This document shows positions 5,690 to 43,466 of a stretch of DNA of 51,809 nucleotides, one piece after another. The DNA is from an uncultured Candidatus Saccharibacteria bacterium (GTDB lineage Bacteria; Patescibacteriota; Minisyncoccia; Minisyncoccales; GWA2-38-27). The notes below the pieces were generated by a model. The model was not told the DNA's origin, ran no database searches, and was given only the letters and a program-made list of their open reading frames with translations. The stretch covers positions 1 through 51,809 of the forward strand of contig CAYXZK010000021.1 in the NCBI GenBank assembly GCA_964469955.1. The letters run 5' to 3'. Both the position numbers and the translations under genes were made by a program. Every line of letters starts with the position of its first letter. Position 1 is the stretch's first letter.

Positions 5690-6700
5690 TTATAATTTTT
5701 TTCCGATAAATTCTGCTAATTCAGCTAATCTGCAGGAATATCCGAATTCATTGTCATACCAGCTAACTGTTTTAATTAAATTGCCATTAACCATTGTTTG
5801 AGACAAGTCAATAATAGAAGAATAGCTATCCCCTATATAATCGCTTGAAACCAATGGTTCTATTTCTGTTTTTAATATTCCTTTAAAATTTTTCTGTTTT
5901 TCTGCTTTTTTCAAAATTCTGTTCACCTCTTCTATCGTGGTAGATTTCTTAACTTTAACAACCAAATCTAAAAGAGAAACAATTGGTGTTGGAACTCTAA
6001 TTGCTATTCCGTCTATTTTATTATTAACCTCAGGAATTACTTTTCCTAATGCTTTAGCAGCTCCTGTGGTTGTAGGTACAATATTTATCGCAGCGCTTCT
6101 TGCTCTTCTTAAATCTTTATGCGGTAAATCCAGAATCCTTTGATCTGTTGTATAGCTATGTATAGTTGACATAAAACCTTTTTCTATTTTAAAACTATCA
6201 TTCAAAACTTTAACCAAAGGAGCAATACAATTTGTAGTACAAGAACCCATATCAATTATTTGATCTTTTTTGGGATTGAATTTGTTTTCATTAACTCCCA
6301 TCACATAGCTTGAAATAGCATTGCCTGATTTACTTGGAGCTGAAATTATCACTTTTTTGGCGCCTGCTTTAATATGTTTTCTTGCCCCGTCTAAGTCTCT
6401 AAAAATCCCAGTACACTCTAAAACAATATCAATTCCTAATTTCTTCCAAGGCAACTCCTCAGGATTTTTTTCTGCAAGAACAGGGAATTTCTTCTTAGCA
6501 ACAATAATATTTGATTTATCAAAACCTATTTCTTTTTCGTATTTTCCGTAAACTGAATCATGTTTTAATAAATGGGCAAGGGTTTTATTGTCGGTTAAAT
6601 CGTTAATCACCGCAACTTCCAAATTAGGATGATCCTCAATTATTCTTTTAAATGTTGAGCGGCCAATACGACCAAACCCATTAATAGCAATTTTAATCAT
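5690..6700 (-). CDS. gap: Glyceraldehyde-3-phosphate dehydrogenase, type I
   Basis: INGFGRIGR NAD-binding motif, catalytic SCTTNCIAP, and WYDNEFGYS near the C-terminus. Confidence 0.95.
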   Translation of the reverse strand: MIKIAINGFGRIGRSTFKRIIEDHPNLEVAVINDLTDNKTLAHLLKHDSVYGKYEKEIGFDKSNIIVAKKKFPVLAEKNPEELPWKKLGIDIVLECTGIFRDLDGARKHIKAGAKKVIISAPSKSGNAISSYVMGVNENKFNPKKDQIIDMGSCTTNCIAPLVKVLNDSFKIEKGFMSTIHSYTTDQRILDLPHKDLRRARSAAINIVPTTTGAAKALGKVIPEVNNKIDGIAIRVPTPIVSLLDLVVKVKKSTTIEEVNRILKKAEKQKNFKGILKTEIEPLVSSDYIGDSYSSIIDLSQTMVNGNLIKTVSWYDNEFGYSCRLAELAEFIGKKL

Positions 6701-7041: not shown

Positions 7042-8013
7042 TTACTCACAAGTCGCAGACCCTTTGCTTTCATAAGAACTGCTTAACTCCTGATTACACT
7101 CCTCGGGAGAAGTGATAAAAGCTGAACAAATCGCGTCTTTATATTCTTGAACAGATCTACCTTTATCATAGACCATATTATTAATAACTAAAGTAGGCGA
7201 ACCAGAAATAGTTATCTTTTCTTTATTATCGTGATTTTTTGGATCTTGGACCAAATATTCGGTTTGAGAAAGTCCAAATTCGTATGCTAACAAATCCTCC
7301 AATTCATTTTCAACGCAATCTTTTATTTTTTGAACATCAATATCTATATTAGTCGCTATCGCCTCCCATTTACTGTCAACGTTTTCATAGGTGCAATTTT
7401 CGTTTATTTGTTTAATAAAATCCCAAAACTTATCTTTCTCGTATTTATTAACGCAAAGCTCCCTAATCCCCTGATTAAACTCTTGCTCTCCGTGTAAAGA
7501 AGTGTATTCGCCTATCTCTGATTTGCTAAAAATATAATGAAGCTCTATGTTCGCTTTGTCACCTAAAAGTTCCTCAATCGGCATGATAATTTCTTCGGCT
7601 TCATTGCCATAAGGACAAAAAGCCATTACAAAAAGATTAACGCTGGGAACATCTGTTTTAGGAATTTCTTTTGCAACTGGAGGATCTAAATCAATCGCTG
7701 TTTCCTGTGGAAACAGAAATTTCCCATCAAGCGTTAGATAAGCTTCAACTTCTTGCCCTTCAATATTAAGTTTCATTTTATATAACCCATTCTCTTTATA
7801 GATTTCTTCCAAAGAAGCGTTTACTTCTCCTCCTAATATATCGTTTTTAATGAAGTCTAACGCTTTTTTACCCGCTTCCTCGCTAGACAAGATTCCTTGA
7901 TCTGTTGCGCCTTTTTCTTGATAGTTAAAATAAAAAAGCGTAGCAGAAATTAAAAGACCGGCAATAATTATCGCTATGCCAATTATTTTAGAATTAAAAA
8001 CCTTAGTATCCAT
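7042..8013 (-). CDS. Membrane-anchored thioredoxin-fold (DsbA-like) protein with degenerate active site
   Basis: 323 aa with an N-terminal TM helix (IIGIAIIIAGLLISATLFYF). A DsbA-like stretch (VNLFVMAFCPYGNEAE) has CPYG where CPYC is expected. The C-terminus is Cys-rich. The functional call is tentative. Confidence 0.5.
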   Translation of the reverse strand: MDTKVFNSKIIGIAIIIAGLLISATLFYFNYQEKGATDQGILSSEEAGKKALDFIKNDILGGEVNASLEEIYKENGLYKMKLNIEGQEVEAYLTLDGKFLFPQETAIDLDPPVAKEIPKTDVPSVNLFVMAFCPYGNEAEEIIMPIEELLGDKANIELHYIFSKSEIGEYTSLHGEQEFNQGIRELCVNKYEKDKFWDFIKQINENCTYENVDSKWEAIATNIDIDVQKIKDCVENELEDLLAYEFGLSQTEYLVQDPKNHDNKEKITISGSPTLVINNMVYDKGRSVQEYKDAICSAFITSPEECNQELSSSYESKGSATCE

Positions 8014-8102
8014 TTTTTGATTAGCAATGATTAGTCGTCAATGATAAATCAATGATTATCAATGACCAGCAATAAATGCTTAGTTATGAATTATTGTTAA
8101 CT

Positions 8103-8945: not shown

Positions 8946-10228
8946 TTTAGTTCGCGTTCTATTTTTAAAAGACGATTATATTTTGATATCCTTTCCCCTC
9001 TTGCCGGAGCTCCTGATTTAATAAAATCAGCGTTAACCCCAACCGCTAAATCAGAAATGAAATTATCACAAGTATCTCCAGACCGATGCGAAACTACAAT
9101 TCTTAAATTAGAATCTTGCGCTGTCTTAACCGCTTGAATGGTTTCCGTAACAGTCCCAATTTGATTCGGTTTAATAATCACACCCCCTACACATCTCTTT
9201 TTTATAGCTTTCTCTATTCTTGTTTTATTTGTTACGGTTAGATCATCGCCGACTAAAAATATTTTTTTAGCCTTGGTTCCAATTTTTTGATTGAATAACC
9301 CCCACGCTTGCCAATCTTGTTCCGCAAATAAGTCTTCTAAAAAAACAATTGGATATTTCTTCAGAATATCTTGATAAAAATTAAAAAGTTTTTCTCTAGT
9401 CATAAGTTTCCTGTCTATTTGATATTTTTCGTTTTTATAAAATTGAGAAGCAGCACAGTCCAGGCCAATTTTAACCTTGTTTTCATATCCAACTTTTCTG
9501 ATTGCTTTAATTATTAAGTTTAGAGCATCTTTGGTTTTTGTTAATAAAGGAGCAAATCCGCCTTCAGCGCCCACATTAGTTGCTTGGCTACCAATTTCGT
9601 CTTCTAGAATTTTCTTTAAAGTATGATAGATTTCAGTCGCTGTTTCCAAGTTTTTTGAGAAATTCTTAAAGTTTGGCACTATCATAAATTCTTGGATGTC
9701 TAAACCATTTCCAGCATGCGCTCCACCATTAATAATATTAAAACAAGGCAAAGGAATTTTAAATTTTGAGTTTGTGTTTAAAATTGAGGAAAGTTTATTT
9801 TCTTTGTTTTGTTCTACGATATTTTTAATATATTGATATAAAGGTAATTTTTCCGCGAACGCGCCTGCGCGACAAACTGCCACAGAAACCGCTAAAAGCG
9901 CGTTAGCGCCTAACTTTGATTTATCTATTGTGCCATCTAATTCAAGCATTAATTGGTCTATCTCTTTTTGCTTAATAGGATTCTTGCCGTTAAGCCGAGG
10001 CGCAATAATTTCATTAATATTTTTACTCGCTTTTAAAACTCCTTTTCCAAAATATCTTTTTTGGTTATCTCTTAATTCTTTAGCTTCATATTTTCCTTTT
10101 GAAGCACCAGAAGGAACCGAAGCCCTAAAAACTCCTAAATTTGTTTTCAATTCAGCTTCAACAGTAGGTTCTCCTCTGGAATCTAAAATTTCTTTTCCTT
10201 GAATGGATTTAATTTTAGAAAAAGCCAT
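8936..10228 (-). CDS. eno: Enolase
   Basis: 430 aa. N-terminal ILDSRGEPTVE and SHRSGDT, with enolase layout over the full length. The stop TGA at 8936-8938 was verified by hand. Confidence 0.95.
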   Translation of the reverse strand: MAFSKIKSIQGKEILDSRGEPTVEAELKTNLGVFRASVPSGASKGKYEAKELRDNQKRYFGKGVLKASKNINEIIAPRLNGKNPIKQKEIDQLMLELDGTIDKSKLGANALLAVSVAVCRAGAFAEKLPLYQYIKNIVEQNKENKLSSILNTNSKFKIPLPCFNIINGGAHAGNGLDIQEFMIVPNFKNFSKNLETATEIYHTLKKILEDEIGSQATNVGAEGGFAPLLTKTKDALNLIIKAIRKVGYENKVKIGLDCAASQFYKNEKYQIDRKLMTREKLFNFYQDILKKYPIVFLEDLFAEQDWQAWGLFNQKIGTKAKKIFLVGDDLTVTNKTRIEKAIKKRCVGGVIIKPNQIGTVTETIQAVKTAQDSNLRIVVSHRSGDTCDNFISDLAVGVNADFIKSGAPARGERISKYNRLLKIERELNNH

Positions 10229-11360: not shown

Positions 11361-11865
11361 TTATTCTGGCGGATTAACTTCATACACCTCCCTCATCCTC
11401 GCTTCAATTATTTCCCTGGGCTTGCTCTCAAAGGGAGCTTTGGTCCAAAGTTCCATCAGTTGGTAAGGGTTAAAGATTTCAGCATACACCTCTCTCATCC
11501 TCGCTTCAATTATTTCCCTAAGCTTGCTCTTAGGAGCGTCTATCCAAAGTATCATTAATTGATAGGGGTTAAAAATTTCAGCATACACCTCTCTCATCCT
11601 CGCTTCAATTATTTTCTCGGGCTTTCTCTCAAAGGGAGCTTTTGTCCAAAGTTCCATTAGTTGATAAGGGTTAAAAATTTCAGCATACACTTCCCTCATC
11701 CTCGCTTCAATTATTTCCCTAAGCTTGCTCTTAGGAGCGTCTATCCAGAGTTCTATTAGTTGATAAGGGTTAAAAATTTCAGCATACACCTCCCTCATCC
11801 TCGCTTCAATTATTTCCCTGAATTTGCTCTCAAAAGGAGTGTCTATCCAGAGTTCCGTTAATTGC
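11361..11865 (-). repeat. In-frame tandem DNA repeat, alternating 99- and 102-nt units (about 5 copies)
   Basis: The string 'cctcgcttcaattatttcc' recurs at about 11398, 11500, 11599, 11701 and 11800. Units are about 90% identical by eye. Confidence 0.85.
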
Positions 11866-11921
11866 TTAAGACTAAATTTTAGTATATGCTCCCGCGTTTT
11901 TAAAAATTTAAACTTGCCCAT
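11361..11921 (-). CDS. Tandem-repeat protein of unknown function (alternating 33/34-aa units)
   Basis: 186 aa made almost entirely of REIIEARMREVYAEIFNPYQL(I/M)ELW(IDAPKSKL/TKAPFESKP) units. It has its own TTGACA-17-TATTAT promoter and a downstream terminator. Confidence 0.7.
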   Translation of the reverse strand: MGKFKFLKTREHILKFSLKQLTELWIDTPFESKFREIIEARMREVYAEIFNPYQLIELWIDAPKSKLREIIEARMREVYAEIFNPYQLMELWTKAPFERKPEKIIEARMREVYAEIFNPYQLMILWIDAPKSKLREIIEARMREVYAEIFNPYQLMELWTKAPFESKPREIIEARMREVYEVNPPE

Positions 11922-12703: not shown

Positions 12704-13585
12704 TTATAAAACCTTCAGTTGTTTTAGGTATTTTTTTAAATCAGGGCCATAATAAGGGTGATTTAAAGAAAGATAAAGGTTGGATTTCAGCCAATTTAAT
12801 TTAGTTCCACATTCAAGCCATTCACCCTCAAATTCATAACCATAAATAGCTTTTCCTTCTGTTAACATTTGATTTAAAGCATTAGCTAAAATTATTTCTT
12901 GAGGTTTTTTCTTTTTTTCTTTTCCCAGATAATCAAAAACTTCAGGCGTTAAAATATATTTACCGACAATCGCAAAATCAGACGGGATTTTTTCAAGGGA
13001 GGGTTTTTCTATAATTTTTTTAATTTTATAAAAACGATTAGCTATTTTTTCAACCGCGACGACTCCATAAGAAGAAAGTTTTTCTTTGGGCAAACGATGA
13101 AGGGCAATTACTGGTTTTTCGCAAGTTTTAAAAACATTTTTTAATTGTAAGATACAAGGCGTTTTTGAATATACAATATCGTCTGAAAACAAACAAGCTA
13201 TCGGTTCTTCTCCTCCAAGTTTCAATGCTTGTAAAATAGCATGCCCGTCACCCAAAGAATCTTTTTGCAAGACATAATTAAAAGAAATATTCTTAAAAAT
13301 ATCTTCAAAGTTTTTAAGCTCCTCCAAGACAGAATCTTTTTTTCTTTCCTTTAGAACCTTATTCAGCTTAGTAGAAGGTTTTAAATAATCCGCAATAATT
13401 TTCTTATTTTCGGATTTAACAATAAAAATTACCTCTTGAATCCCAGAATTTAGGGCTTCTTTAATGATATGTTGAATCATTGGAACATCCACTAATGGCC
13501 AAAATTCTTTTGGTACCACCTTAGACAGAGGCAAAAACCTTGTGCCCAATCCAGCAATAGGAATAATAACCTTTTTTATATCCAT
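12704..13585 (-). CDS. galU: UTP--glucose-1-phosphate uridylyltransferase
   Basis: MDIKKVIIPIAGLGTRFLPLSKVVPKEFWP is a canonical GalU N-terminus. The ORF track extends to 13606, but the ATG at 13585 (M8) matches the family start better. Confidence 0.88.
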   Translation of the reverse strand: MDIKKVIIPIAGLGTRFLPLSKVVPKEFWPLVDVPMIQHIIKEALNSGIQEVIFIVKSENKKIIADYLKPSTKLNKVLKERKKDSVLEELKNFEDIFKNISFNYVLQKDSLGDGHAILQALKLGGEEPIACLFSDDIVYSKTPCILQLKNVFKTCEKPVIALHRLPKEKLSSYGVVAVEKIANRFYKIKKIIEKPSLEKIPSDFAIVGKYILTPEVFDYLGKEKKKKPQEIILANALNQMLTEGKAIYGYEFEGEWLECGTKLNWLKSNLYLSLNHPYYGPDLKKYLKQLKVL

Positions 13586-13660: not shown

Positions 13661-15610
13661 TTATATTTGTTCTTTTTTCCTTCTGAAAATAGCGGGCGTT
13701 TCCCAGACTTCTTCTTTTTTCAATATTTCTTTTTCTTCTTCTTCGGTTGCTTCTCTGACTTGCAAACCGCTCCGTCTAACTTTTCTGCTTTCGATTTCTG
13801 TTAATTCAATTAAGCTCTTTTTCTTCTCTTCTTCTGTTAAGGCATATCTTGTCTTTGGTAAAATAGTTTTTGTTTCAGGATTATCTTTTTTTTCAGAGAC
13901 TACTTCTTTATTTAAATCAGATTTTGGTTTACTGTTTTGCTTTGTTTCTTTTTCTAATTTCTTGGGTAAAACTTCACTTTTCTTGATTGCTGGCAATTTC
14001 TTAATTTTAACTTTTTGTTTTTGGTTTCCTTCCGGTTCTTCAATTCGCTCATGTTTGATTATATCTTTCTCTTTTAAAGGAATTTTAACAATTTTAATTT
14101 CGCTAGAACTATCTTTAACAATATTAATTTTTTTATTACGTTTATTTTTTTTCTTTGGTTTTTTCTTTTTAACAATAATTTTATCATTATCAGTTTTAAC
14201 TTCTGTTGAATCTTTTTTAAGATTACAACCAACCGCAAGCAATGTTATTTTGATTCTGTTTTTGAGTTTTTCGTTTTGGTTTATTCCAAAAATAATTTTA
14301 GCTTTTTTATTTATCAGTTCAGAAATTGCTTCTGATATTAAAGAAACTTCCAAGAGTTGAAGCGCTTTATCGCTGGATATGTTATATAAAATCCCTTTCG
14401 CTCCTTTAATATCATAAGGATATAGTTCGCTAAAAATTAATTTTTTAATAATTCCCGTTTCCGTATTTATTTGTGAAGAGAAAGTAGAAATAGTATCGTT
14501 TGTTCTTGTTGTATGGTTTTCAAAATTATAAAAGGAATCGTTCTCAGGAATCTTAGAGTCCTTAAAATCATTTCCGTTATTAGCTCTAATGTTATTAAGT
14601 GTCTGAGCTTCCACCGTATTAAGATAAACTAATTTTCCTTTTCCAGATAAGATTGTTTTTAAATCGGCGAAATCAATATTAATCAAACCGGACGAATATA
14701 TCATTTCGATTAATCCTTGTAAATTTTCAGTCAATCTTCTGTTAATTGAAGAGAGAGCGGTCTTCAAAGGAGCGTTTTTATCAACAATTCTAAAAATTCT
14801 TTCATTGGGAATAATAGAATAAGCGTTAAGATTTTGTTTTACTTGTTCAAGAGATTCTCTACTAATGTCCATTTTCTTTTCCCCTTCAAATTCAAACGGC
14901 AAAGTAAAAATTCCATAAGTAATACAATTTAAGTTTTTAGAAATCCTAGAGAAAACAGGTAGAGCCCCAGAGCCAGTTCCGCCTCCCAAAGAAGCAATTA
15001 AAATACAAACGTCTTGACCTTCAAAAAGTTTCTTAATTTCTTCTTTTTTATTCTCCGCAGCCAATTTGCCTATTTCGGGATTCATTCCAGCTCCAAAGCC
15101 ATCAGTCAAATCTTGTCCGAATTGAAATTTCTTAATCTTTTTTGGGGCTTTTTTAAGGGCTTGAACATCAGTATTAGCAACCACAAAATCTAATTTATTC
15201 ATTTTAAGGGCAAGTTCAGAAACGATCGAGCCTCCACCGCCTCCAATACCAATTAACCTAATCTTTGTCTTGTGAAAATCATCCTTAAAAACACTGTTTT
15301 TATTTAACTTTCTTTTTTGAATAGTTTCATTCTTTAGAATCTTTTTTGGAGTTTTCGTTCTTCTATCTACTGACATCTTACTTGTCTTTTTTACTGGATT
15401 TCTCTTTATAATTTTTTTAATTTTTCCGGTTTTCTTAATTTTCTTTATGTTTTTAACTTTCTTAGCTCTCTCAATTTTTTGAGAAAAATTCTTTTTTTGC
15501 ATTTCTTTCTTTTTACCTGAATATTTAACAGAATTTATTTTTCTAATCTTTTTCTTTTTAGATAAACGCGTGTTTAACTTCTTTAATTTTTTTAATTTTT
15601 TTGTAACCAT
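13661..15610 (-). CDS. ftsZ: FtsZ with Lys-rich N-terminal extension, internal insertion and long charged C-terminal linker
   Basis: GIGGGGGS, ANTD, GAGMNPEIG, tubulin signature GGGTGSG, and NIDFADL. The C-terminal peptide ETPAIFRRKK resembles the conserved FtsA-binding tail. 649 aa if ATG 15610 is used; alternative starts are at 15502 and 15376. Confidence 0.85.
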   Translation of the reverse strand: MVTKKLKKLKKLNTRLSKKKKIRKINSVKYSGKKKEMQKKNFSQKIERAKKVKNIKKIKKTGKIKKIIKRNPVKKTSKMSVDRRTKTPKKILKNETIQKRKLNKNSVFKDDFHKTKIRLIGIGGGGGSIVSELALKMNKLDFVVANTDVQALKKAPKKIKKFQFGQDLTDGFGAGMNPEIGKLAAENKKEEIKKLFEGQDVCILIASLGGGTGSGALPVFSRISKNLNCITYGIFTLPFEFEGEKKMDISRESLEQVKQNLNAYSIIPNERIFRIVDKNAPLKTALSSINRRLTENLQGLIEMIYSSGLINIDFADLKTILSGKGKLVYLNTVEAQTLNNIRANNGNDFKDSKIPENDSFYNFENHTTRTNDTISTFSSQINTETGIIKKLIFSELYPYDIKGAKGILYNISSDKALQLLEVSLISEAISELINKKAKIIFGINQNEKLKNRIKITLLAVGCNLKKDSTEVKTDNDKIIVKKKKPKKKNKRNKKINIVKDSSSEIKIVKIPLKEKDIIKHERIEEPEGNQKQKVKIKKLPAIKKSEVLPKKLEKETKQNSKPKSDLNKEVVSEKKDNPETKTILPKTRYALTEEEKKKSLIELTEIESRKVRRSGLQVREATEEEEKEILKKEEVWETPAIFRRKKEQI

Positions 15611-15701: not shown

Positions 15702-15794
15702 GTTGGCCATGCATCATAGTTGGCCATGCGATGGCCAACCAGCGATGGCCGACCAGCGGCCAACCAGTGGCCAACAAGCACGATGGTCAACAGG
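15702..15794. repeat. REP-like palindrome cluster 1
   Basis: Perfect GTTGGCCATGCGATGGCCAAC at 15719-15739, plus half-sites (GTTGGCCATGC, ATGGCCGAC, GGCCAAC x2, ATGGTCAAC). It is a GC-rich island between ftsZ and the helicase gene. Confidence 0.9.
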
Positions 15795-15820
15795 TAATCA
15801 GCCAAAAACCAATTTAAAAA

Positions 15821-18793
15821 TTATTTAGCAAAATCACAAATATCTCTAAAATCGCAAAACTGACATTGCCAACCAGGATTTGGTTTAAAATCACTTTGCC
15901 TAATTTTTTCAATCTCTTTTAATATTTTTTCTTTTTGTTGTTTTTTCTCTTGAACGCTCCCCAAAAAAGAAACTATTTTTCCTTCTTCTAAATAATAGTA
16001 ACCAAGTTCTGTTGGTTTTAAGCCAAAAATATCTTCAAGCGCAATTTGGTAAATTAAAAGTTGTTGTTTGTCTTTTGGCAATAATTTTTCTTTAAAGGCG
16101 CCTGTTTTGTAATCAATAATTCTCGCGCCATTCTTTAATTTATCTATTCTATCTATTCTTCCAAAAAGAATGTATTTCCCTATTTTTAGTTTAAAAGGCA
16201 ACTCTAAAGCTATTTTTCCATTAACTTTTAAAATACTGGGCTTATCTTCTAAGAATTTTTCATAAAAATTTTTAAGTATTTTTTTTCCTAATTTATGGTA
16301 TTCTTTTTTTTGGCTTTGGGACTCGTACCATTCGTCAATCCACTCTTTTTCATATATTTCAATCAAATCTTCAAAACCGTAAGCGCTAAAAAGTTCCTTA
16401 GCGTTAATCTGCTTAATTTCTTTATTTTTTTCTTCCTTAAGTTTAAACAAATTATTCTGGTTTGTTTCTTTCTGTCCGTTAACTAATTTTAAAAATTCGT
16501 ATAAAGTATTATGAATTGTTTTTCCGAAAGAGAAAACTGCTTTCCCTTTGGTTGGCACTTTATAAATATATGCAAACTTATACTGCAAAGGACATTTTTC
16601 GAAAGCCGCTAATTGAGAAAAAGAAAAATGAGAAGGCAAGACTATTCCCTGTTTAGTTCTGTTTTTAATCAGATCATTCGCAGGTGTTAAGTTTTTAAAA
16701 ATTTCTTGTTGTTTACTCCTATTGTTTAATTTACTGCCTATTACTTCTTCTTTTTTAACAAAACCTGTTTCGACCAAAAACCTTGACGGTTTTTTATTTC
16801 TTAACCCACCATAATCATCAGCCGAAGTAAAGAATAATTTTTCTTGCGCTCTTGTCATTGCAACATAGAAAAGTCGCCTTTCTTCTTCTAAATAAACATC
16901 ACCTTTAGGGATAATTTCTTTTGTTAGCTCTAACGGGATCTCAATCGGTTCTTTGCGTTGAATGGTTGGAAACCTTTTATCAACTAAATTAACTAAAAAA
17001 ACATATTTAAATTCTAATCCTTTGGCAGAATGAATAGTCATAATCCTAATCATGTCAAGCCCTTGCTCAAGCTCAAATTTTAATTTACCCTGTTGGCCTG
17101 ATTCTATTTCTAAGTTTATTTGTTCTATAAAATTTTTAATAGTTGGGTAAATTACAGTTTCCTCAAATTCTTTTATTTTTTTATAGAATTGATTAATTAA
17201 ATCAAGTTTTTGTTGAGCATCTTTCTTAATTAAATAATTTAAATATCCAGAATCTTTTAAAAAGGAAATCAGGATTTCTGAAAGTTGTTTATGGCGCGTT
17301 AATTTAAGATGTTTTTCAATCAAACTTAAGATAAAAGAAATTTTACTCCGTGCTTTTTCGGAAACATCTTGAATTAAAGGAAGTTCCTCTAATCCTTGAT
17401 AGATTGTTTTTGTTTTTCGAGAACAATATTGGGTAATCTTCATTATATCGTTTGAACTAATTTCCAAAAAAGGCATATTTAAAATTCGATATACCGAAGA
17501 ACTCTCCTCATTATTGTCTAAAATTTTAAAGTAAGAAATAATATCTAAAATAATAGGTTTAGAATAAAGACCTTCAGAAGCTAAAAATTGATACGGGAAA
17601 CCAGCTCTCGTTAACGCTCCGATAAATGGGTTTGCGGTTTGATTTGCTCGAATCAAAATCGCGAAATCGCTAAAATTTGATTCAATGTTTTGTTCAAGAA
17701 TTTCAGCGATTTTATTAATCACTCCTTGAGCTTCTTCGTCAGAATCTTTAAAGCGAAGATATTCAATAACGCCTTTTTCTTTTTTAGAAGCAATTAGCTT
17801 TTTGTTAATTTTACTAATATATTCAAGCCGATTTGGATTATTGGCTTGAATAAATTCATAAGAAAGATCTAAAATATTCTGTGGAGAACGATAGTTTGTA
17901 ATCAAAGAGATCTCTTTTGTCTTGGGAAAATCTTTTTTGAATTGGATAATATTATTAAAAGACGCTCCTCTAAACTTATAAATGGATTGATCGTCATCAC
18001 TTGAAACCGTTAAATTATTTTTTGGAAAAGCTAAGATTTTTGCCAATTCGTATTGCGCCCAATTAGTATCTTGAAATTCATCAATTAAAATATGTTTAAA
18101 CTTTTCTCTATATTTTTTTAGAATCAATGGCCTCTTTTGAAAAAGTCTTAAAGTGTAATTGATTAAATCTCCAAAATCTAAAAAATTGTTTTCTAAAAGC
18201 AATTTTTGATAAATATGATATGCATTCGCGACCTCTTTAATTCTTTCTGCTTCCTGATTTTCCGGTAAATCCGTAAGATTGGTTTTTAGTCTATCGCTGT
18301 ATTCCAAATAATCTTCAGGAGATATATTTTGGTCTTTGCAACGAGAAAAATGAGAAATTAACGCGGATATAAATTTAGTTTGCCTTCCTAGTGGCCTGTA
18401 ATAATTAAATTGAAACTTATCTAGGTTTTGTTTAACAAAAAGCCACGCGCTTGTTTGGTCTAATAATTTAAAATCGGTTGACAATCCAATATCCAAGCCA
18501 TGTTCTTTTAGAATCCTTTCGCAAAAAGAATGGAAAGTAGAAATCCATAAATCCATATATCCATAATCCAAAAGACCATCTACCCTTTCTTCCATTTCTG
18601 TCGCGGCTTTATCGGTAAAAGTTAGAGCTAAAATTTCTTCTGCTGCAGCTCTTTTGTTTTTGATTAAATAAGCAATGCGTTCAGTAATAACCGCTGTTTT
18701 ACCAGTACCTGCGCCCGCAACAAGCAAAAGCGGCCCCTCTCCAAAAGTAACTGTTTGTTTTTGTTCTTCATTTAATCTTTTTTTAGCATCCAT
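15821..18793 (-). CDS. UvrD/PcrA-like superfamily 1 helicase fused to C-terminal PD-(D/E)XK (Cas4/AddB-type, Fe-S) nuclease
   Basis: Walker A (AGAGTGKT), motif II (LIDEFQDTNW), nuclease motif (GRIDRID...IIDYKTG), and cysteines C...CQFCDFRDIC (C-x2-C-x5-C). Confidence 0.85.
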   Translation of the reverse strand: MDAKKRLNEEQKQTVTFGEGPLLLVAGAGTGKTAVITERIAYLIKNKRAAAEEILALTFTDKAATEMEERVDGLLDYGYMDLWISTFHSFCERILKEHGLDIGLSTDFKLLDQTSAWLFVKQNLDKFQFNYYRPLGRQTKFISALISHFSRCKDQNISPEDYLEYSDRLKTNLTDLPENQEAERIKEVANAYHIYQKLLLENNFLDFGDLINYTLRLFQKRPLILKKYREKFKHILIDEFQDTNWAQYELAKILAFPKNNLTVSSDDDQSIYKFRGASFNNIIQFKKDFPKTKEISLITNYRSPQNILDLSYEFIQANNPNRLEYISKINKKLIASKKEKGVIEYLRFKDSDEEAQGVINKIAEILEQNIESNFSDFAILIRANQTANPFIGALTRAGFPYQFLASEGLYSKPIILDIISYFKILDNNEESSSVYRILNMPFLEISSNDIMKITQYCSRKTKTIYQGLEELPLIQDVSEKARSKISFILSLIEKHLKLTRHKQLSEILISFLKDSGYLNYLIKKDAQQKLDLINQFYKKIKEFEETVIYPTIKNFIEQINLEIESGQQGKLKFELEQGLDMIRIMTIHSAKGLEFKYVFLVNLVDKRFPTIQRKEPIEIPLELTKEIIPKGDVYLEEERRLFYVAMTRAQEKLFFTSADDYGGLRNKKPSRFLVETGFVKKEEVIGSKLNNRSKQQEIFKNLTPANDLIKNRTKQGIVLPSHFSFSQLAAFEKCPLQYKFAYIYKVPTKGKAVFSFGKTIHNTLYEFLKLVNGQKETNQNNLFKLKEEKNKEIKQINAKELFSAYGFEDLIEIYEKEWIDEWYESQSQKKEYHKLGKKILKNFYEKFLEDKPSILKVNGKIALELPFKLKIGKYILFGRIDRIDKLKNGARIIDYKTGAFKEKLLPKDKQQLLIYQIALEDIFGLKPTELGYYYLEEGKIVSFLGSVQEKKQQKEKILKEIEKIRQSDFKPNPGWQCQFCDFRDICDFAK

Positions 18794-18852: not shown

Positions 18853-18976
18853 CATAGTCGGCCATGCATAGTTGGCCATGCGATGGCCAACCACCAACCG
18901 TTGGCCATGCATAGTCGGCCATGCGATGGCCAACCACCAACCTTCGGCCATACGATGGCCAACCATTTGGCCAATC
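18853..18976. repeat. REP-like palindrome cluster 2 (two ~43-nt higher-order units plus a third partial)
   Basis: Perfect palindrome at 18871-18891. Variants are GTCGGCCATGCGATGGCCAAC at 18914-18934 and CTTCGGCCATACGATGGCCAACC at 18942-18963. Confidence 0.9.
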
Positions 18977-18995
18977 ATTTTGACATATAAAAAGG

Positions 18996-19019
18996 AGGTT
19001 GGCTTTTTAAAGCCAACCT
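18996..19019 (-). terminator. Intrinsic terminator after the 84-aa ORF
   Basis: AGGTTGGCT/AGCCAACCT form a 9-bp stem with a 6-nt loop. On the minus strand this is followed by CCTTTTTAT. Confidence 0.6.
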
Positions 19020-19026
19020 TTGAATT

Positions 19027-19281
19027 TTAATTTACGAAAGCCCAGTGTCCAATGGGCGCTTCCCAAGATAGACACAAATCCTTATCTGTGTCAGTCTCAA
19101 GAATAAAATTTATCGTTAAGACGCCCCTCTTATTGAAATAAATCAAGAATCTCAATTTCCAATTTAATGGAAGTCCCCCTGTTTCCTCTTTGATTTGCTG
19201 GTAAATATAGTATATCTCTTCCCCCATAATTTCGATACCGTCTTTAACGTAATTAGACACCATTAGATTTTCTATGTTCAT
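19027..19281 (-). CDS. Small hypothetical protein (84 aa)
   Basis: Strong SD (AAAAGGAGGAGTGGC-ATG), an upstream TTGACA promoter, and a downstream terminator. No family recognised. Confidence 0.6.
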   Translation of the reverse strand: MNIENLMVSNYVKDGIEIMGEEIYYIYQQIKEETGGLPLNWKLRFLIYFNKRGVLTINFILETDTDKDLCLSWEAPIGHWAFVN

Positions 19282-19319
19282 GCCACTCCTCCTTTTATTG
19301 TTAATATGCTTTAAATAAT

Positions 19320-19347
19320 ACTTTATCTATTTTTTAGAATTTGTCAA
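19320..19347 (-). promoter_or_regulatory. Sigma70-like promoter for the 84-aa ORF
   Basis: Minus strand TTGACA (19347-19342), a 16-nt spacer, then TAAAGT. Confidence 0.45.
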
Positions 19348-19364
19348 AAAACCGTAGAAAAAAA

Positions 19365-19387
19365 CTGCGGAAGCTTAATTTCCGCAG
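19365..19387 (-). terminator. Intrinsic terminator after the UPF0182 gene
   Basis: CTGCGGAA/TTCCGCAG form an 8-bp stem with a 7-nt loop, followed on the minus strand by TTTTTTT. Confidence 0.75.
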
Positions 19388-19472
19388 TCTCTTGGTCTCC
19401 GTAGACCTTTCTTAATTTTTAGGAATTTAAAAAATTTAAAAAATATTTAAAAATCTAAAAGATTATTTTCTT

Positions 19473-38554: not shown

Positions 38555-39199
38555 CTAAACGAGAAGAGCAGATATAATCCCTGTTAAAAATATTCCGTCG
38601 AAAACCCCTGCTCCTCCGATTGAAATCAACCCAGAATTCATTTTTCTAGCTTTGTTCAGATTTAAAAGATCGCCTCCAATTAAAATTCCTAAAACACCGG
38701 AGATAAAAGCGCAAGGCGCCATAAAACCTGGAGCCAAAATTACGGCAAACAGAATCGCAAAAAGAGGAGGAATAAAAGCATTCATTACGATTCCTTTACC
38801 TTGAACAGGTTTTGCTAAAATTTTAGAAACAATAATCATTAAAAAAATAGCGCTCAAAACAGGCGCTAAAGGAACTTTTGTTAGAAAGTAAAGAGAGATA
38901 AGGACTGGTATAATAGCTCCCCCCAAATTAACCGCTACCATTGAAACTCTTGGAGCGCGTTTTTTGAACAATCCAAAGAAATAGGATTTATCGACGTAAA
39001 CAATTTCTCTCTTTGTCAAAGGAATATTTATAACAGAACCCAAAAGTATTAAAAAAAGAATTAAAACAGTAGTATTCGCAGAAAAGCCCAAGTTTTCAAA
39101 GCCAAAAGCAATCAATTTTAAAAAAGCCAGTAAAAACAAAACAGGCAGGAATAGGACAAAAAGAATAAAAATTAAAATAGCAACCGGAATTGAAAGCAT
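38555..39199 (-). CDS. Polytopic membrane protein of unknown function
   Basis: 214 aa, almost entirely hydrophobic helices. I could not assign a family with confidence. Confidence 0.55.
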   Translation of the reverse strand: MLSIPVAILIFILFVLFLPVLFLLAFLKLIAFGFENLGFSANTTVLILFLILLGSVINIPLTKREIVYVDKSYFFGLFKKRAPRVSMVAVNLGGAIIPVLISLYFLTKVPLAPVLSAIFLMIIVSKILAKPVQGKGIVMNAFIPPLFAILFAVILAPGFMAPCAFISGVLGILIGGDLLNLNKARKMNSGLISIGGAGVFDGIFLTGIISALLV

Positions 39200-39217: not shown

Positions 39218-39364
39218 AACCAGCCATTGTTAGCCAATAGCTGACCACCAATTGGCCATCGTCCCTGGTTGGCCATCCCTGGTTGGCCATCGCATGGCCA
39301 ACTATTTATTAATTACTAATCCCTAGTTGGCCATCCTGGTTGGCCATCGCATGGCCAACTAGCC
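39218..39364. repeat. REP-like palindrome cluster 3 (inverted orientation), overlapping the RAYT 3' end
   Basis: Perfect GTTGGCCATCGCATGGCCAAC at 39282-39302 and 39339-39359, each preceded by a GGTTGGCCATCC half-site. These form two ~45-nt composite units. Confidence 0.9.
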
Positions 39365-40007
39365 AGTTTGAAAAATGTTTTTTAAACGATTCTTGACTCG
39401 GAAGAAATAATTTATTAAATAATTCTTTGTTGATAATAAATATTAAATCATTTTTCCCAAGAATATTTAAATAACTTGACCAAGTATAGTCCTCCAAAAA
39501 TTTTTCTACTTTTTTAATATTTTTTATGCCGTCTTCTTTCCAATTTCTCTCTATTAATTTAACTGGATTTGAAAAAATATAATAAGGCAAATAAATAAAG
39601 TGATCTTCTTGTTTAATTGGAATTATTTTTGATCTGCCTTGAAATAAAACTCCGCTTCTTTCGTTTTTTAAATTAAAATACTGCGTATATCCACCACTTA
39701 TTTTTTTAGAAAATATACTCGCGCCACCATCAATCTTTTCTTGAACTAAAATATGATAATGGTTAGACATCAGACACCAGCACAAAACATCTACTAACTT
39801 TTTTTTGTTTGTTGGCCATTGATTGGTTGGCCATCGCATGGCCGACCAATCTTTAGGATTATGTCGCTTATTAAAAGGCATTACAGTATCATTTTGATCG
39901 TTAAAATCATAAAGATTATATGCAAAACGCAAATAGTCTTCTTTATTAAGAAATATATTTCTTTTTTCTACTCCTCTATTTAAAATATGAAAAAAATCTC
40001 CTTTCAT
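39309..40007 (-). CDS. rayT: REP-associated tyrosine transposase (RAYT) / IS200-like Y1 HUH transposase
   Basis: FHILNRG N-terminus, HUH motif (LMSNHYHILV), Tyr region (GGYTQYFNLKNERSGVLFQGRSK), and YIFSNPVK. No tnpB partner. Flanked by REP arrays in opposite orientations. Confidence 0.8.
   Translation of the reverse strand: MKGDFFHILNRGVEKRNIFLNKEDYLRFAYNLYDFNDQNDTVMPFNKRHNPKDWSAMRWPTNQWPTNKKKLVDVLCWCLMSNHYHILVQEKIDGGASIFSKKISGGYTQYFNLKNERSGVLFQGRSKIIPIKQEDHFIYLPYYIFSNPVKLIERNWKEDGIKNIKKVEKFLEDYTWSSYLNILGKNDLIFIINKELFNKLFLPSQESFKKHFSNWLVGHAMANQDGQLGISN
39811..39850. repeat. REP-like element embedded in-frame inside the RAYT coding sequence
   Basis: GTTGGCCATTGATTG plus GTTGGCCATCGCATGGCCGAC (39826-39846). 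It encodes ...DWSAMRWPTNQWPTN.... Confidence 0.85.
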
Positions 40008-40040
40008 ATCTCTTATTGTACTACATCTATTATACTACAT

Positions 40041-40170
40041 CGATTGGCCATGTTGGTTAGCCATGTTAGTTGGCCATGCGATGGCCAACTAACCTTATTA
40101 TATTACAACGGTTGGCCATGCGATGGCCAACCAACGATGGCCGACCAATGGCTAATTAATAACCGACCAA
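40041..40170. repeat. REP-like palindrome cluster 4 (upstream of RAYT, downstream of secA)
   Basis: Perfect GTTGGCCATGCGATGGCCAAC at 40069-40089 and 40111-40131, plus half-sites (ATTGGCCATG, GTTAGCCATG, ATGGCCGACC). Confidence 0.9.
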
Positions 40171-40175
40171 ATAAT

Positions 40176-42743
40176 TTAGCCGTATTTCGGCCAACAACAT
40201 TTCTTGTACTTTTTACCAGAACCACACGGACAAAGATCGTTTCGTCCCACTTTTTTGTATTTATTGATCAATGAATTGTTCGCGTTAGTTCCCTCTTCTT
40301 TAGTGTTCTGGTCCCTATATATAGACATAGGTTTTTGCGGTCTTTCTCTCTTCTCGTTTAAATTTTGGTTTTCTGGCGGATTAAATTTAATCTCTGCTTT
40401 AAAAACAGCGTTTGCGATTGTGTTCTCAACCGATTTAAGTAATTCTTGAAACATTTTATGGCCTTCTCTTTTATATTCAACCAAAGGATCTTGCTGACCG
40501 TAAGCTCTTAAGCGAACAGAATCTCTTAAACGCTCCATATCTTCTAAGTGCTCAACCCAAAAAGAGTCTAAAACCCTTAAACAAACAATCTTCTCAACTT
40601 GCCTCATATTTTCTTCTCCAACTTGTTTTTCTTTTTCTTGGTAATCAGATTCTGAATAACCTGCTTTTTTAATTATTTCTACAATGTAAGAACGCAAAGT
40701 TTTTTGCATTTGGCCTGTTTCTGTTTCTTCTGCTTTATTTGATTTTTCCTCAACATAATCCGCTTGGTTCAATATCTCTCTTCTTTTTCTATAAAAAACT
40801 TCTCTGTGTTTATTCATCACATCATCGTATTCCAAAACATGTTTTCTTAAATCAAAATTCATTCCTTCAATTTTTGTTTGCGCGGATTCAATTGCTTTTG
40901 AAATTATTTTTGCTTCAATCGGCTGATCTTCTGGAATTTTAAGCGTATCCATTAAAGACTTTATTCTTTCCCCTCCAAAAACCCTCACTAAATCATCTTC
41001 TAAAGAAATAAAAAATTGAGAAGAGCCAGGATCTCCCTGTCGCCCAGCTCTGCCTCTAAGCTGATTATCAATTCTACGCGCTTCGTGTCGTTCAGTTCCA
41101 ATGATATGCAGTCCTCCCAATTCAATAACTCTTTTTTGCTCTTCTTCGTTCAAAGGATTGCCGCCCAAAATTATATCAACTCCTCTCCCCGCCATATTGG
41201 TAGCTATCGTGACTGCGCCTATTTTGCCTGCTTGGGCAATTATTTCTCCTTCTTTCTGATGATTTTTAGCATTCAGGATTTTGTGTTCAACCCCTTCCCT
41301 ACTAAGCAATTTTTCTAAATACTCATTTTTTTCAATAGAAGTTGTTCCGACCAGAACTGGTCGTCCTTGCGCGTTCATTTCTTTTATTTCTTTTGCGAGC
41401 GCTTCAAATTTACCTTGTAAGGTTTTGTAAATCCTATCCGACAATTGTTTTCTTATCAAGGGCTTGTTAGTTGGAACAACTTTAACCTCCAAACCATAAA
41501 CTTTATCAAACTCTTCGGCGGAAGTGGTGGCTGTTCCAGTCATACCAGCTAATTTGCGATACATTCTAAAATAATTCTGAAAAGTAATGCTTGCCAAAGT
41601 TCTTGATTCTTTTTGAACCTCTATGCCTTCTTTAGCTTCAACTGCTTGATGGATCCCGCCCGACCATCTACGGCCCGGCATCAATCTTCCGGTAAATTCA
41701 TCAACAATTATAATTTGATTATCTTTAACAATATAATCTTTGTCTTTTTTAAATAAACTTTTTGCTTTCAATGCCGCTTCCAATTGATGCGTAGTGGCAA
41801 TGTTATTTTCGGCCCAAGGATCATATCCCAAAATCTTAACAATTTTGTCTTGTCCCGCGATCGTAAAAATAGCAGCTTTCATTTTTTCGTCTATCTCATA
41901 GTCTTGAGACTCTTTTAATTGAGCAACCACTTTCGCAAAACGATAATATTTTTCCGTGGACTCTTCTTCTGGAGCTGAAATAATCAAAGGCGTTCTCGCT
42001 TCATCAATAAGAATAGAATCCACCTCATCAATAATCGCGTAATGAAAACTTCTTTGAATTTCATTTTTTAAATCATAGACCATATTGTTCCTTAAGTAGT
42101 CAAAACCAAACTCATTATTGGTTCCATAAGTAATATCTGCTTGATAAGCTTCCTTGCGCGTAACGGGCTTTAAATAATCTTCAACAATTTTAAAGCTTCC
42201 CAGTATATCCCTAAGATTATCTTTTTCTTCTGTTGGTTTTTTATAATTAGCATCGTATAAAAAAGATTGCTCGTGGTTTATACATCCTACCGAGACTCCT
42301 AATATATTGTAAATCTGACCCATCCAAACAGTGTCTCTTCTCGCCAGATAATCATTAACAGTAACTAAATGAGCGCCCTTTCCTTCAAGAGCGTTTAGGT
42401 ATAACGGTAAGGTTGCTGAAAGTGTTTTACCTTCACCGGTTTTCATTTCGCTTATTTTCCCTTCATGCAAAATAATCCCGCAAATTAACTGGACATCAAA
42501 ATGCCTTTGCTTTAATGTTCTTTTGGCCGCTTCTCTTACTAAAGCAAAAGCTTCGGGCAAAATTACTTCTAAGCTTTCTTTAGCGTTTAACCTTGCTTTA
42601 AATTCAAAAGTTTTATCTTTTAATTGTTGCTCGGAAAATTTTTCAAATTCAGATTCAAAAGAATTTATTTTTACAATTATTGGTTGTAGTTTTTTAAAAT
42701 ATTTTTCTTCTGGATTTTTAAAAATTTTATTTAAAAATGACAT
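40176..42743 (-). CDS. secA: Preprotein translocase ATPase SecA
   Basis: 855 aa. MKTGEGKT Walker A, DEAD-like IIDEVDSILIDEARTPL, and a C-terminal zinc finger (CPCGSGKKYKKCC). Confidence 0.95.
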   Translation of the reverse strand: MSFLNKIFKNPEEKYFKKLQPIIVKINSFESEFEKFSEQQLKDKTFEFKARLNAKESLEVILPEAFALVREAAKRTLKQRHFDVQLICGIILHEGKISEMKTGEGKTLSATLPLYLNALEGKGAHLVTVNDYLARRDTVWMGQIYNILGVSVGCINHEQSFLYDANYKKPTEEKDNLRDILGSFKIVEDYLKPVTRKEAYQADITYGTNNEFGFDYLRNNMVYDLKNEIQRSFHYAIIDEVDSILIDEARTPLIISAPEEESTEKYYRFAKVVAQLKESQDYEIDEKMKAAIFTIAGQDKIVKILGYDPWAENNIATTHQLEAALKAKSLFKKDKDYIVKDNQIIIVDEFTGRLMPGRRWSGGIHQAVEAKEGIEVQKESRTLASITFQNYFRMYRKLAGMTGTATTSAEEFDKVYGLEVKVVPTNKPLIRKQLSDRIYKTLQGKFEALAKEIKEMNAQGRPVLVGTTSIEKNEYLEKLLSREGVEHKILNAKNHQKEGEIIAQAGKIGAVTIATNMAGRGVDIILGGNPLNEEEQKRVIELGGLHIIGTERHEARRIDNQLRGRAGRQGDPGSSQFFISLEDDLVRVFGGERIKSLMDTLKIPEDQPIEAKIISKAIESAQTKIEGMNFDLRKHVLEYDDVMNKHREVFYRKRREILNQADYVEEKSNKAEETETGQMQKTLRSYIVEIIKKAGYSESDYQEKEKQVGEENMRQVEKIVCLRVLDSFWVEHLEDMERLRDSVRLRAYGQQDPLVEYKREGHKMFQELLKSVENTIANAVFKAEIKFNPPENQNLNEKRERPQKPMSIYRDQNTKEEGTNANNSLINKYKKVGRNDLCPCGSGKKYKKCCWPKYG

Positions 42744-43404: not shown

Positions 43405-43427
43405 AAACTCCGCCCATGGGGCGGAGT
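43405..43427 (-). terminator. Strong intrinsic terminator between the poly-Lys mini-ORF and hpf
   Basis: AACTCCGCCC/GGGCGGAGTT form a perfect 10-bp stem with a 3-nt loop. On the minus strand it is followed by TTCTTATC. Confidence 0.7.
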
Positions 43428-43466
43428 TAGAAAAAGTTTCTAATCATCATAAGAAGTTAGACTTCT

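Follow-up and report, generated by a model that had tools for sequence, protein, structure and literature searches.

We analysed a stretch of 51,809 nucleotides (nt) from an uncultured Candidatus Saccharibacteria bacterium (contig CAYXZK010000021.1 of GenBank assembly GCA_964469955.1; the whole stretch is referred to as the window), which carries a gene for a class-2 Y1 HUH nuclease/transposase together with copies of a short GC-rich palindrome. The gene is an intact open reading frame (ORF) of 232 amino acids (aa) at 39309..40007 on the minus strand, and its product resembles the REP-associated tyrosine transposases (RAYTs; REP: repetitive extragenic palindromic sequence) and the TIRYT proteins. 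On one side lies secA (40176..42743), on the other a DUF1614 gene (38555..39199), then secD and secF; the gene has no tnpB-like neighbour, and no second gene of the family is found in the window. The initial annotation of this DNA, which was made from the letters alone, had given the same ORF and the same sec gene context with no TnpB partner, and all the protein motifs that it quoted are present.

The palindrome is a 21-mer, GTTGGCCATGCGATGGCCAAC, with the structure GTTGGCCAT-GCG-ATGGCCAAC and nine stem pairs. A sequence scan finds six perfect copies in the window, and the number expected by chance is 0 (100 dinucleotide-preserving shuffles). Four copies show the loop GCG on the plus strand (15719-15739, 18871-18891, 40069-40089 and 40111-40131) and two show the loop CGC on that strand (39282-39302 and 39339-39359). 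Copies with one mismatch are present at 18914-18934 and 39826-39846, and a copy with three mismatches at 18943-18963. The perfect and near-perfect copies reported initially are thus all recovered at the same place or within 1 nt of it (18942 becomes 18943), but their assignment changes in part. Of the two copies described as lying downstream of the gene, 39282-39302 is outside the ORF, whereas 39339-39359 is inside its 3′ end; of those described as distant, the copies at 15719, 18871, 18914 and 18943 are distant, whereas 39826-39846 is in frame inside the ORF.

Full copies are surrounded by single arms, GTTGGCCAT or ATGGCCAAC, which are the half-sites noticed previously, and the islands formed in this way have a GC content of 45-56% compared with 31.9% for the whole window, in line with the GC-rich islands of the initial description. 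When the loop is written as GCG, the order within an array is left arm or arms, full palindrome, right arm or arms. Read directly, the left arms retain GC of the loop and the right arms retain (G)CG, which indicates that the arm duplications break in or next to the loop. The upstream array (40042..40158, no strand assigned) lies between the secA stop codon and the ORF; it has two full palindromes (40069-40089 and 40111-40131) around a 21-nt AT-rich spacer, with surplus left arms on one side and surplus right arms on the other, and forms a symmetric composite hairpin (fold as single-stranded DNA (ssDNA) -33.7 kcal/mol, z -6.65). The downstream array (39218..39338, no strand assigned) consists of the full palindrome 39282-39302, extra right arms and decayed half-sites, and almost reaches the beginning of the DUF1614 gene; its fold energy is -32.2 kcal/mol (z -5.05). 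Two further copies are located within the ORF, both on the minus strand. The 3′-terminal copy (39339..39359) codes for GHAMAN of the C-terminal tail. The internal copy, GTCGGCCATGCGATGGCCAAC, at 39826-39846, codes in frame for WSAMRWPT (residues 54-61) and has one extra arm at 39811-39819; the complete element (39811..39846) codes for WSAMRWPTNQWPT, which lies in the linker that joins helix A to the strand preceding the HUH strand.

The repeat is also found away from the gene. In dispersed cluster A (15702..15800, no strand assigned), one left arm and four to five right arms accompany the full palindrome 15719-15739; the cluster lies between an ftsZ-like gene and a UvrD/PD-(D/E)XK helicase-nuclease gene. 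Dispersed cluster B (18857..18975, no strand assigned) consists of 2.2 direct tandem copies of a 43-bp unit; its full palindromes are at 18871 and 18914, with a decayed one at 18943, and it is located upstream of the same helicase gene. The two clusters, both of which show the loop GCG on the plus strand, bracket this single gene (15821..18793, minus strand), whose 990-aa product combines a UvrD-type helicase with a PD-(D/E)XK nuclease in one fusion protein. The ~490 nt from cluster B to the next gene (18985-19472) contain no ORF of at least 90 aa and no Rfam match; no RNA family was found by Rfam anywhere in the window. A degenerate half-site at 40187..40195 (no strand assigned) coincides with the final codons of secA (..CCWPKYG*): the C-terminal zinc-finger tail of SecA ends in ..KKYKKCCWPKYG*, and its last codons are the degenerate palindrome arm GTTGGCCGA (window 40176-40200), so that the end of an essential gene has been reshaped by the repeat. 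Eight further assemblies of the locus, 99.8-99.99% identical to the window, have the same arrangement, which rules out an assembly artefact.

A word-indexed search with the protein returned 1435 homologues, and nearly all the named ones belong to genomes of Patescibacteria/Parcubacteria, among them Portnoybacteria and Nealsonbacteria. An exhaustive profile search, counted in clusters at 50% identity, gave 377 at E<=1e-30 and, for the wider superfamily, 16,433 at E<=1e-3; one remote relative was found in viral contigs. For the survey of palindromes we used 14 family genes: that of the window, those of 11 other Patescibacteria lineages (52-78% identity; their loci are denoted by L and a number) and two paralogues (33-38% identity). 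Paralogues sharing a contig are about 30-38% identical.

Each of the 14 genes has a palindrome of its own at the same positions. A copy is located 28-124 nt before the ATG in all of them, and in most relatives it is 28-50 nt before it, between the stop codon of the upstream gene and the start. A second copy is found at or just past the stop codon, again in 14 of 14 genes: in most loci it overlaps the 3′ end of the ORF or the stop codon, and in the rest it is just beyond. A third, internal copy is present at nt +147 to +171 in 10 of the 14 genes. The 5′ and 3′ copies are mutually inverted in the window and in L013, L017, L018, L019 and L022. The palindrome itself differs from gene to gene. It is GTCGGCTAT-CCG-ATAGCCGAC in L017, which has 78% identity, TTCGGCTAT-CCG-ATAGCCGAA in L013, GTGGACAT-GCG-ATGTCCAC in both L012 and L023, TCGGACGT-GCG-ACGTCCGA in L025 and GTAGGCTAT-GCG-ATAGCCTAC in L024. 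The paralogues of L012 and L023 have TGTTTAACGT-TAA-AGGTTAAACA and TTTATCGAAGTC-G-GACTTCCATAAA, respectively, so that in each of these contigs the two family genes carry unrelated palindromes. Imperfections are also shared: a stem mismatch in L018 (GCTAT..AAAGC) is identical in all copies, and an imperfect inner stem in L020 is common to all three. Such imperfections, shared between the sites of one gene, show that the sites are homogenised copies of one sequence and not independently maintained hairpins. The link between protein and palindrome across relatives, which had been proposed as a check on the initial annotation, is therefore borne out: each gene has its own, different, co-varying palindrome.

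The pairing within the stem is conserved while its sequence changes. Across the 12 lineages, six of the nine stem pairs have changed on both sides and 95.4% of cells remain paired; the covariation score is 0.593 compared with 0.195 in shuffles, none of which (0 of 500) reaches the observed value, and pairing falls to 19-44% in slid registers. Invariant positions are G6, G7, T11, C13, G14, A15, C19 and C20, which give a family-wide core GG..T-nCG-A..CC surrounded by lineage-specific positions. A reading of the palindrome as a restriction-modification site (TGGCCA) was rejected: the stems of relatives have GGCTAT, GGACAT or GGACGT.

These data bear on the possibility that the palindromes are sites or terminators of an unrelated host factor and that their nearness to the ORF is coincidental. 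Intergenic GC-rich hairpins are commonly terminator-like, and two hairpins of the window score so on the plus strand; however, these matches face no gene, since all genes of the window are on the minus strand. In addition, each of the 14 genes, including the two pairs of paralogues on the same contig, has a different palindrome which matches its own sites only. We consider a host factor very improbable.

Concerning the internal copy, its reading frame differs between clades: by arithmetic on the coordinates, it is read as S-A-M/I-R-x-P in the clade of the window and as G-H-A-M-S in that of L012. Because the same element is read in two frames, its conservation is in DNA and not in peptide, and a peptide-level explanation was rejected on this ground. 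The homologues P0029 and P0104, which have no internal palindrome, have a linker several residues shorter.

In the protein, the HUH motif is H83-Y-H85, and Y143 and N147 are the predicted catalytic tyrosine and metal ligand; the motifs NHYH, LFQG, YIFSNP and WSS are present. H85, Y143 and N147 do not vary among 103 relatives, of which at least 90% also keep H83. The AlphaFold model from the 103-sequence alignment has a mean predicted local distance difference test score (pLDDT) of 89.8 and a predicted template modelling score (pTM) of 0.87; the only parts of low confidence are the linker (pLDDT 55-62) and the C-terminal tail (pLDDT <50). The best PDB match in Foldseek is 4ER8 (E 4.7e-5), the structure of E. 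coli TnpA_REP with a bound REP hairpin; 2A6M, 2VJV and 2XO6 come next, all with probability 1.00, and the lower-ranking matches are IS608, ISDra2 and IS200 transposases. A profile of the 103 relatives places H83, H85, Y143 and N147 on H59, H61, Y115 and N119 of 4ER8 (E 0.011), which are its published active-site residues; a profile of close homologues only had no match among the PDB sequences. Of the relatives, 96 of 103 match Pfam Y1_Tnp (PF01797) at E<=0.01; 98 of 103 match REP_Tyr_transpos at the same threshold (best 2.6e-14), against 6 for IS200. Residues 150-232 have no Pfam match, and hence no Bac_DnaA_C, HTH_23 or HTH_28 domain was found there; the C-terminal ~80 aa are modelled as an extra, unannotated helical domain. 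Taken together, the Y---NP motif, the first rank of 4ER8 by both fold and profile, and the model matches support the assignment of the product to the Y1 HUH enzymes of class 2 and not to IS200/IS605 TnpA, as had been suggested initially.

The Y---NP tyrosine motif defines class 2 of the TnpA_Y1 proteins (Quentin et al. 2018, PMC6006769). Within this class, subclass 2.1 has the signature NH[YF]H, FQ, Y[IV]HLNP and SS with a median length of ~238 aa (Table 1 of PMC6006769), and corresponds to Group 1 RAYTs of Bertels (PMC5581495) and to the TIRYT/TIRtron of Di Nocera et al. 2013 (PMC3733652). Judged by its motifs, the window protein is closest to this group and not to IS200 or the REPIN-associated groups: it has NHYH, FQG, Y---NP (YIFSNP, where the family consensus is YIHLNP) and WSS, and its 232 aa compare with ~230-240 aa. 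The nearest relative among plasmid records is also of the 2.1 type: a Legionella "transposase" with 29% identity and the motifs NHYH, FQG, YIVLNP and WSS, which has a Bac_DnaA_C-like helix-turn-helix (HTH) and 26-nt terminal inverted repeats (TIRs), the 3′ repeat overlapping the stop codon. As in TIRtrons, short inverted repeats enclose the gene, the one at the 3′ end overlaps the stop codon, and the repeats are of low or moderate copy number; some TIRs have been reported as self-complementary. There are also differences: the family described here lacks the C-terminal HTH (Bac_DnaA_C/HTH_23), its repeats are nearly perfect palindromes of 19-25 nt whereas TIRtrons have long TIRs with GGGGWSAS (a motif absent here), an additional copy lies in frame inside the gene, and the hosts are Patescibacteria. 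According to Quentin et al. (PMC6006769), whose text does not mention Patescibacteria, no REP-like sequences are found beside 2.1 genes.

The REPtrons (E. coli yafM of subclass 2.2; Pseudomonas Groups 2 and 3) share with this system the Y1 HUH fold, the Y---NP helix, the closest structural match (4ER8) and a single-copy gene flanked by co-evolving cognate palindromes with further intergenic clusters. Unlike theirs, the palindrome of the window begins with GTTG, which is base-paired, and there is no unpaired GT[AG]G foot; the protein falls far below the REP_Tyr_transpos cut-off and has the extra helical domain predicted at its C terminus. The initial annotation had recognised a REPIN/RAYT architecture, and this part does not hold. 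The motifs are those of Group 1 and not of Group 2 or 3, to which the REPIN-RAYT system of Bertels & Rainey belongs; no clear REPIN doublet is seen; cluster B is a direct tandem and the upstream array a symmetric composite. Since the units are nearly perfect palindromes, their polarity shows only in the loop and in the arms beside them; for the L012 paralogue and in L014, inverted doublets are present. The system is thus not a canonical REPIN/RAYT but REPtron/TIRtron-like.

Subclass 2.4 (Cyanobacteria/Bacteroidetes) is the only one known to have in-frame REPs inside a transposase gene, where they are placed between HuH and Y; its motifs are NH[IFV]H, WQ and YIxNNP, and its REPs have a 'double foot'. 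The Patescibacteria genes resemble this subclass in carrying an in-frame cognate REP within their own transposase gene, and in a 5′ tetranucleotide mirrored at the 3′ end. The foot tetranucleotides of the relatives are GTGG (L012, L023), GTAG (L024), GTCG, TTCG and TTGG, always mirrored, and GTGG..CCAC and GTAG..CTAC are literal double-foot forms. The insertion differs in position (in the linker after helix A and before the HUH strand), and the motifs differ too. With IS200/IS605 TnpA (subclass 1.1) the system has in common the HUH/Y1 fold and subterminal hairpins, which IS200/IS605 TnpA recognises on ssDNA; that enzyme has Y---Q, ~150 aa, an obligate dimer, many copies and frequently tnpB, none of which are seen here. 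We found no paper that ties REP/RAYT or IS200-type elements with these features to Patescibacteria or the candidate phyla radiation, in agreement with the initial remark that such a system had not been characterised there.

The arrangement of palindrome, gene and palindrome might represent an autonomous IS200-like insertion sequence whose hairpins are the left and right ends and whose dispersed clusters are scars or solo ends. Several features would be expected of such an element. In most relatives the palindromes are confined to the two ends of the gene, and the family occurs in several contexts: next to secA, in a ligA-linked position which recurs in L012, L019 and L023, between ileS and recO, and others. 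In L014 and L017 a diverged duplicate of the secA 3′ tail (the stretch coding for KKYKKC) lies just beyond the 3′ palindrome (L014 10652-10685, L017 ~860-880; alignment scores 29 vs a shuffle maximum of 21 and 25 vs 23), as if the cassette had entered the end of secA, and it looks like a relic of such an insertion. A search for target-site duplications outside the palindromes was negative in seven of nine loci; the two positives are these secA-tail duplicates, which may go back to one ancestral event. There is also an abrupt divergence between L014 and L015 just upstream of the 5′ palindrome. These two contigs, which come from one study, have 0 mismatches over 10.7 kb starting 38 nt upstream of the palindrome (position 9928/9929) and are unrelated upstream of that point, where one has secA and the other a phage-type integrase context; the break at the secA tail is due either to a rearrangement or to a chimeric assembly. 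Against an autonomous element, only one copy is present in the 52-kb window, no OrfB/TnpB was found beside any locus examined, and the protein is of class 2 (Y---NP, 232 aa) as opposed to subclass 1.1 (Y---Q, ~150 aa). The position beside secA is the same in the window, L013, L015 and L018, orthologues which are just 55-62% identical, and the low identity of paralogues on the same contig means that they are not recent copies. We regard an autonomous insertion sequence as unlikely. The distribution fits a gene which is domesticated, vertically inherited and occasionally relocated, and in this respect the description of a domesticated single gene is upheld.

Alternatively, the palindromes could be mainly cis-regulatory, as operators or autoregulatory hairpins, as a terminator or insulator after secA, or as mRNA-stabilising stem-loops; they would match the gene since the protein binds them and thereby controls its own expression, and the dispersed copies would be incidental. 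The fixed positions relative to start and stop codons in all 14 genes suit this role, as does the short distance of the 5′ copy from the ATG in most relatives, and the published E. coli TnpA_REP has been described as auto-inhibited and down-regulated. Regulation leaves unexplained the arrays of half-arms, the tandem cluster B, and the copies in unrelated intergenic regions and in ligA; moreover, the hairpins are not followed by a T-run in gene-sense direction. As the main function of the palindromes it seems improbable to us, though it is compatible with the explanation that we prefer and does not exclude it.

Our preferred explanation, to which we assign a probability of roughly 70%, is that the gene encodes a single-copy, vertically inherited class-2 Y1 HUH ssDNA nuclease/strand-transferase which has GTTGGCCAT-GCG-ATGGCCAAC as its cognate palindrome and acts mostly in cis. 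In the proposed mechanism the palindrome would be extruded as a hairpin on transiently single-stranded DNA and bound by the protein, which would contact the invariant core GG..T-nCG-A..CC through family-wide contacts and the variable stem positions through lineage-specific ones. The metal bound by the HUH motif and the asparagine, together with Tyr143, would cut beside or within the hairpin to give a 5′-phosphotyrosyl link, after which the protein would rejoin the ends. Action mainly in cis would make and homogenise the copies around its own gene: the array at the 5′ end, the stop-codon copy, and the in-frame copy, which sits in the single disordered linker permissive for it. The same activity could yield the surplus half-arms and occasionally seed intergenic clusters, such as A and B.

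A number of observations weigh against this explanation. The window protein scores below the family cut-offs, with 17.7 bits against 23 bits for Pfam Y1_Tnp (PF01797) and 25.5 bits against 80 bits for NCBIfam REP_Tyr_transpos (NF047646), and hairpin binding, cleavage chemistry, cis preference and mobilisation are inferred for this family. The covariation of the stem fits equally well a two-fold symmetric duplex site of a dimeric protein. Dispersal is modest, with two extra clusters in 52 kb, and in most relatives no palindrome is found beyond the gene within ±10 kb. In the other contigs of the collections genome_contigs, metagenome_contigs and viral_contigs the 21-mer gave only three chance hits, to which collections the source genome seemingly does not belong; these hits are in GC-rich DNA of unrelated organisms (the one inspected is coding sequence), and none is in viral contigs. 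Lastly, the arrays have no indels in the eight further assemblies, which gives no sign of ongoing activity.

A more speculative extension, which we hold only as a tentative and rather doubtful idea, is that the internal hairpin is functional: the enzyme would limit itself through the site in its own gene, by binding to its own ssDNA or mRNA or by reversible cleavage and rearrangement among the three sites, and the Patescibacteria family would represent a low-copy proto-REP state, illustrating how TIRtron-like units give rise to REP families in minimal genomes. An internal site which is kept in place and re-matched to the flanks in 10 of 14 genes, while being read in two frames, is what would follow if the hairpin had such a function.

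To our knowledge, nearly all the REP/RAYT systems and TIRtrons characterised so far are from Proteobacteria, Cyanobacteria and Bacteroidetes. The large Patescibacteria family extends a system known from Proteobacteria to the tiny, AT-rich bacteria of the candidate phyla radiation. It is closest to 2.1, the sole subclass reported to be without REPs, yet it has a short cognate palindrome for each gene. As the palindromes are short, are fixed in position and co-vary in six of nine stem pairs across 12 lineages, they form a clean natural data set for the study of hairpin recognition by Y1 HUH enzymes. The family may also show the birth and the restraint of REP families in ultra-small genomes, which are poor in repeats.

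Further repeats were observed in the contigs of relatives. The palindrome of the second family gene of L012, TGTTTAACGTTAAAGGTTAAACA, occurs as an inverted doublet at 8015-8066, 7 kb away and between two type-II/IV secretion genes, and again at 13745-13767, in frame within ligA, the gene for the NAD-dependent DNA ligase, where it falls in a variable loop (..CLTFNVKH..). In L014/L015 there is an intergenic inverted doublet (12905-12971) of an unrelated 23-nt palindrome, CTACGGACGT-ACG-ACGTCCGTAG; the distance between its two units is 44 bp, and the sequence is similar to the palindrome cognate to P0101 in L020. L019 has another palindromic repeat (CCACATTTTAAACGATCGTCTAAAATGTGG-like) on either side of a PaaX_M-domain gene (~12775-12800 and 13370-13400) and short GAAGTA/CGAAG tandem repeats near 7985 and 8800. 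The L018 locus is a 12,184-bp NCBI contig which is its own mirror image, with the fold-back joint (6067-6118) on two cognate palindromes; the hairpin probably caused a chimeric assembly or an amplification artefact. Since the hairpins reach into the ends of genes (their own ORFs, secA and ligA) and this joint, they are relevant to the quality of metagenome-assembled genomes of these bacteria.

Regarding the remainder of the window, all the long ORFs which are not overlapped by a longer one are on the minus strand, and the GC skew of the plus strand is negative throughout (-0.09 to -0.21), which indicates a single replichore with genes co-oriented with replication. Inside a 186-aa ORF (11361..11921, minus strand), positions 11381-11864 form a tandem repeat with periods of 99/201 bp (83-90% matches; ~4.8 copies at the 99-bp period), which is either a coding repeat in expansion or part of a repetitive protein. 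Among the GC-rich perfect hairpins of the window that are unrelated to the palindrome, the largest, AACTCCGCCC-ATG-GGGCGGAGTT at 43406-43428, is located between a murB-like gene and an S30AE gene and is probably a terminator.

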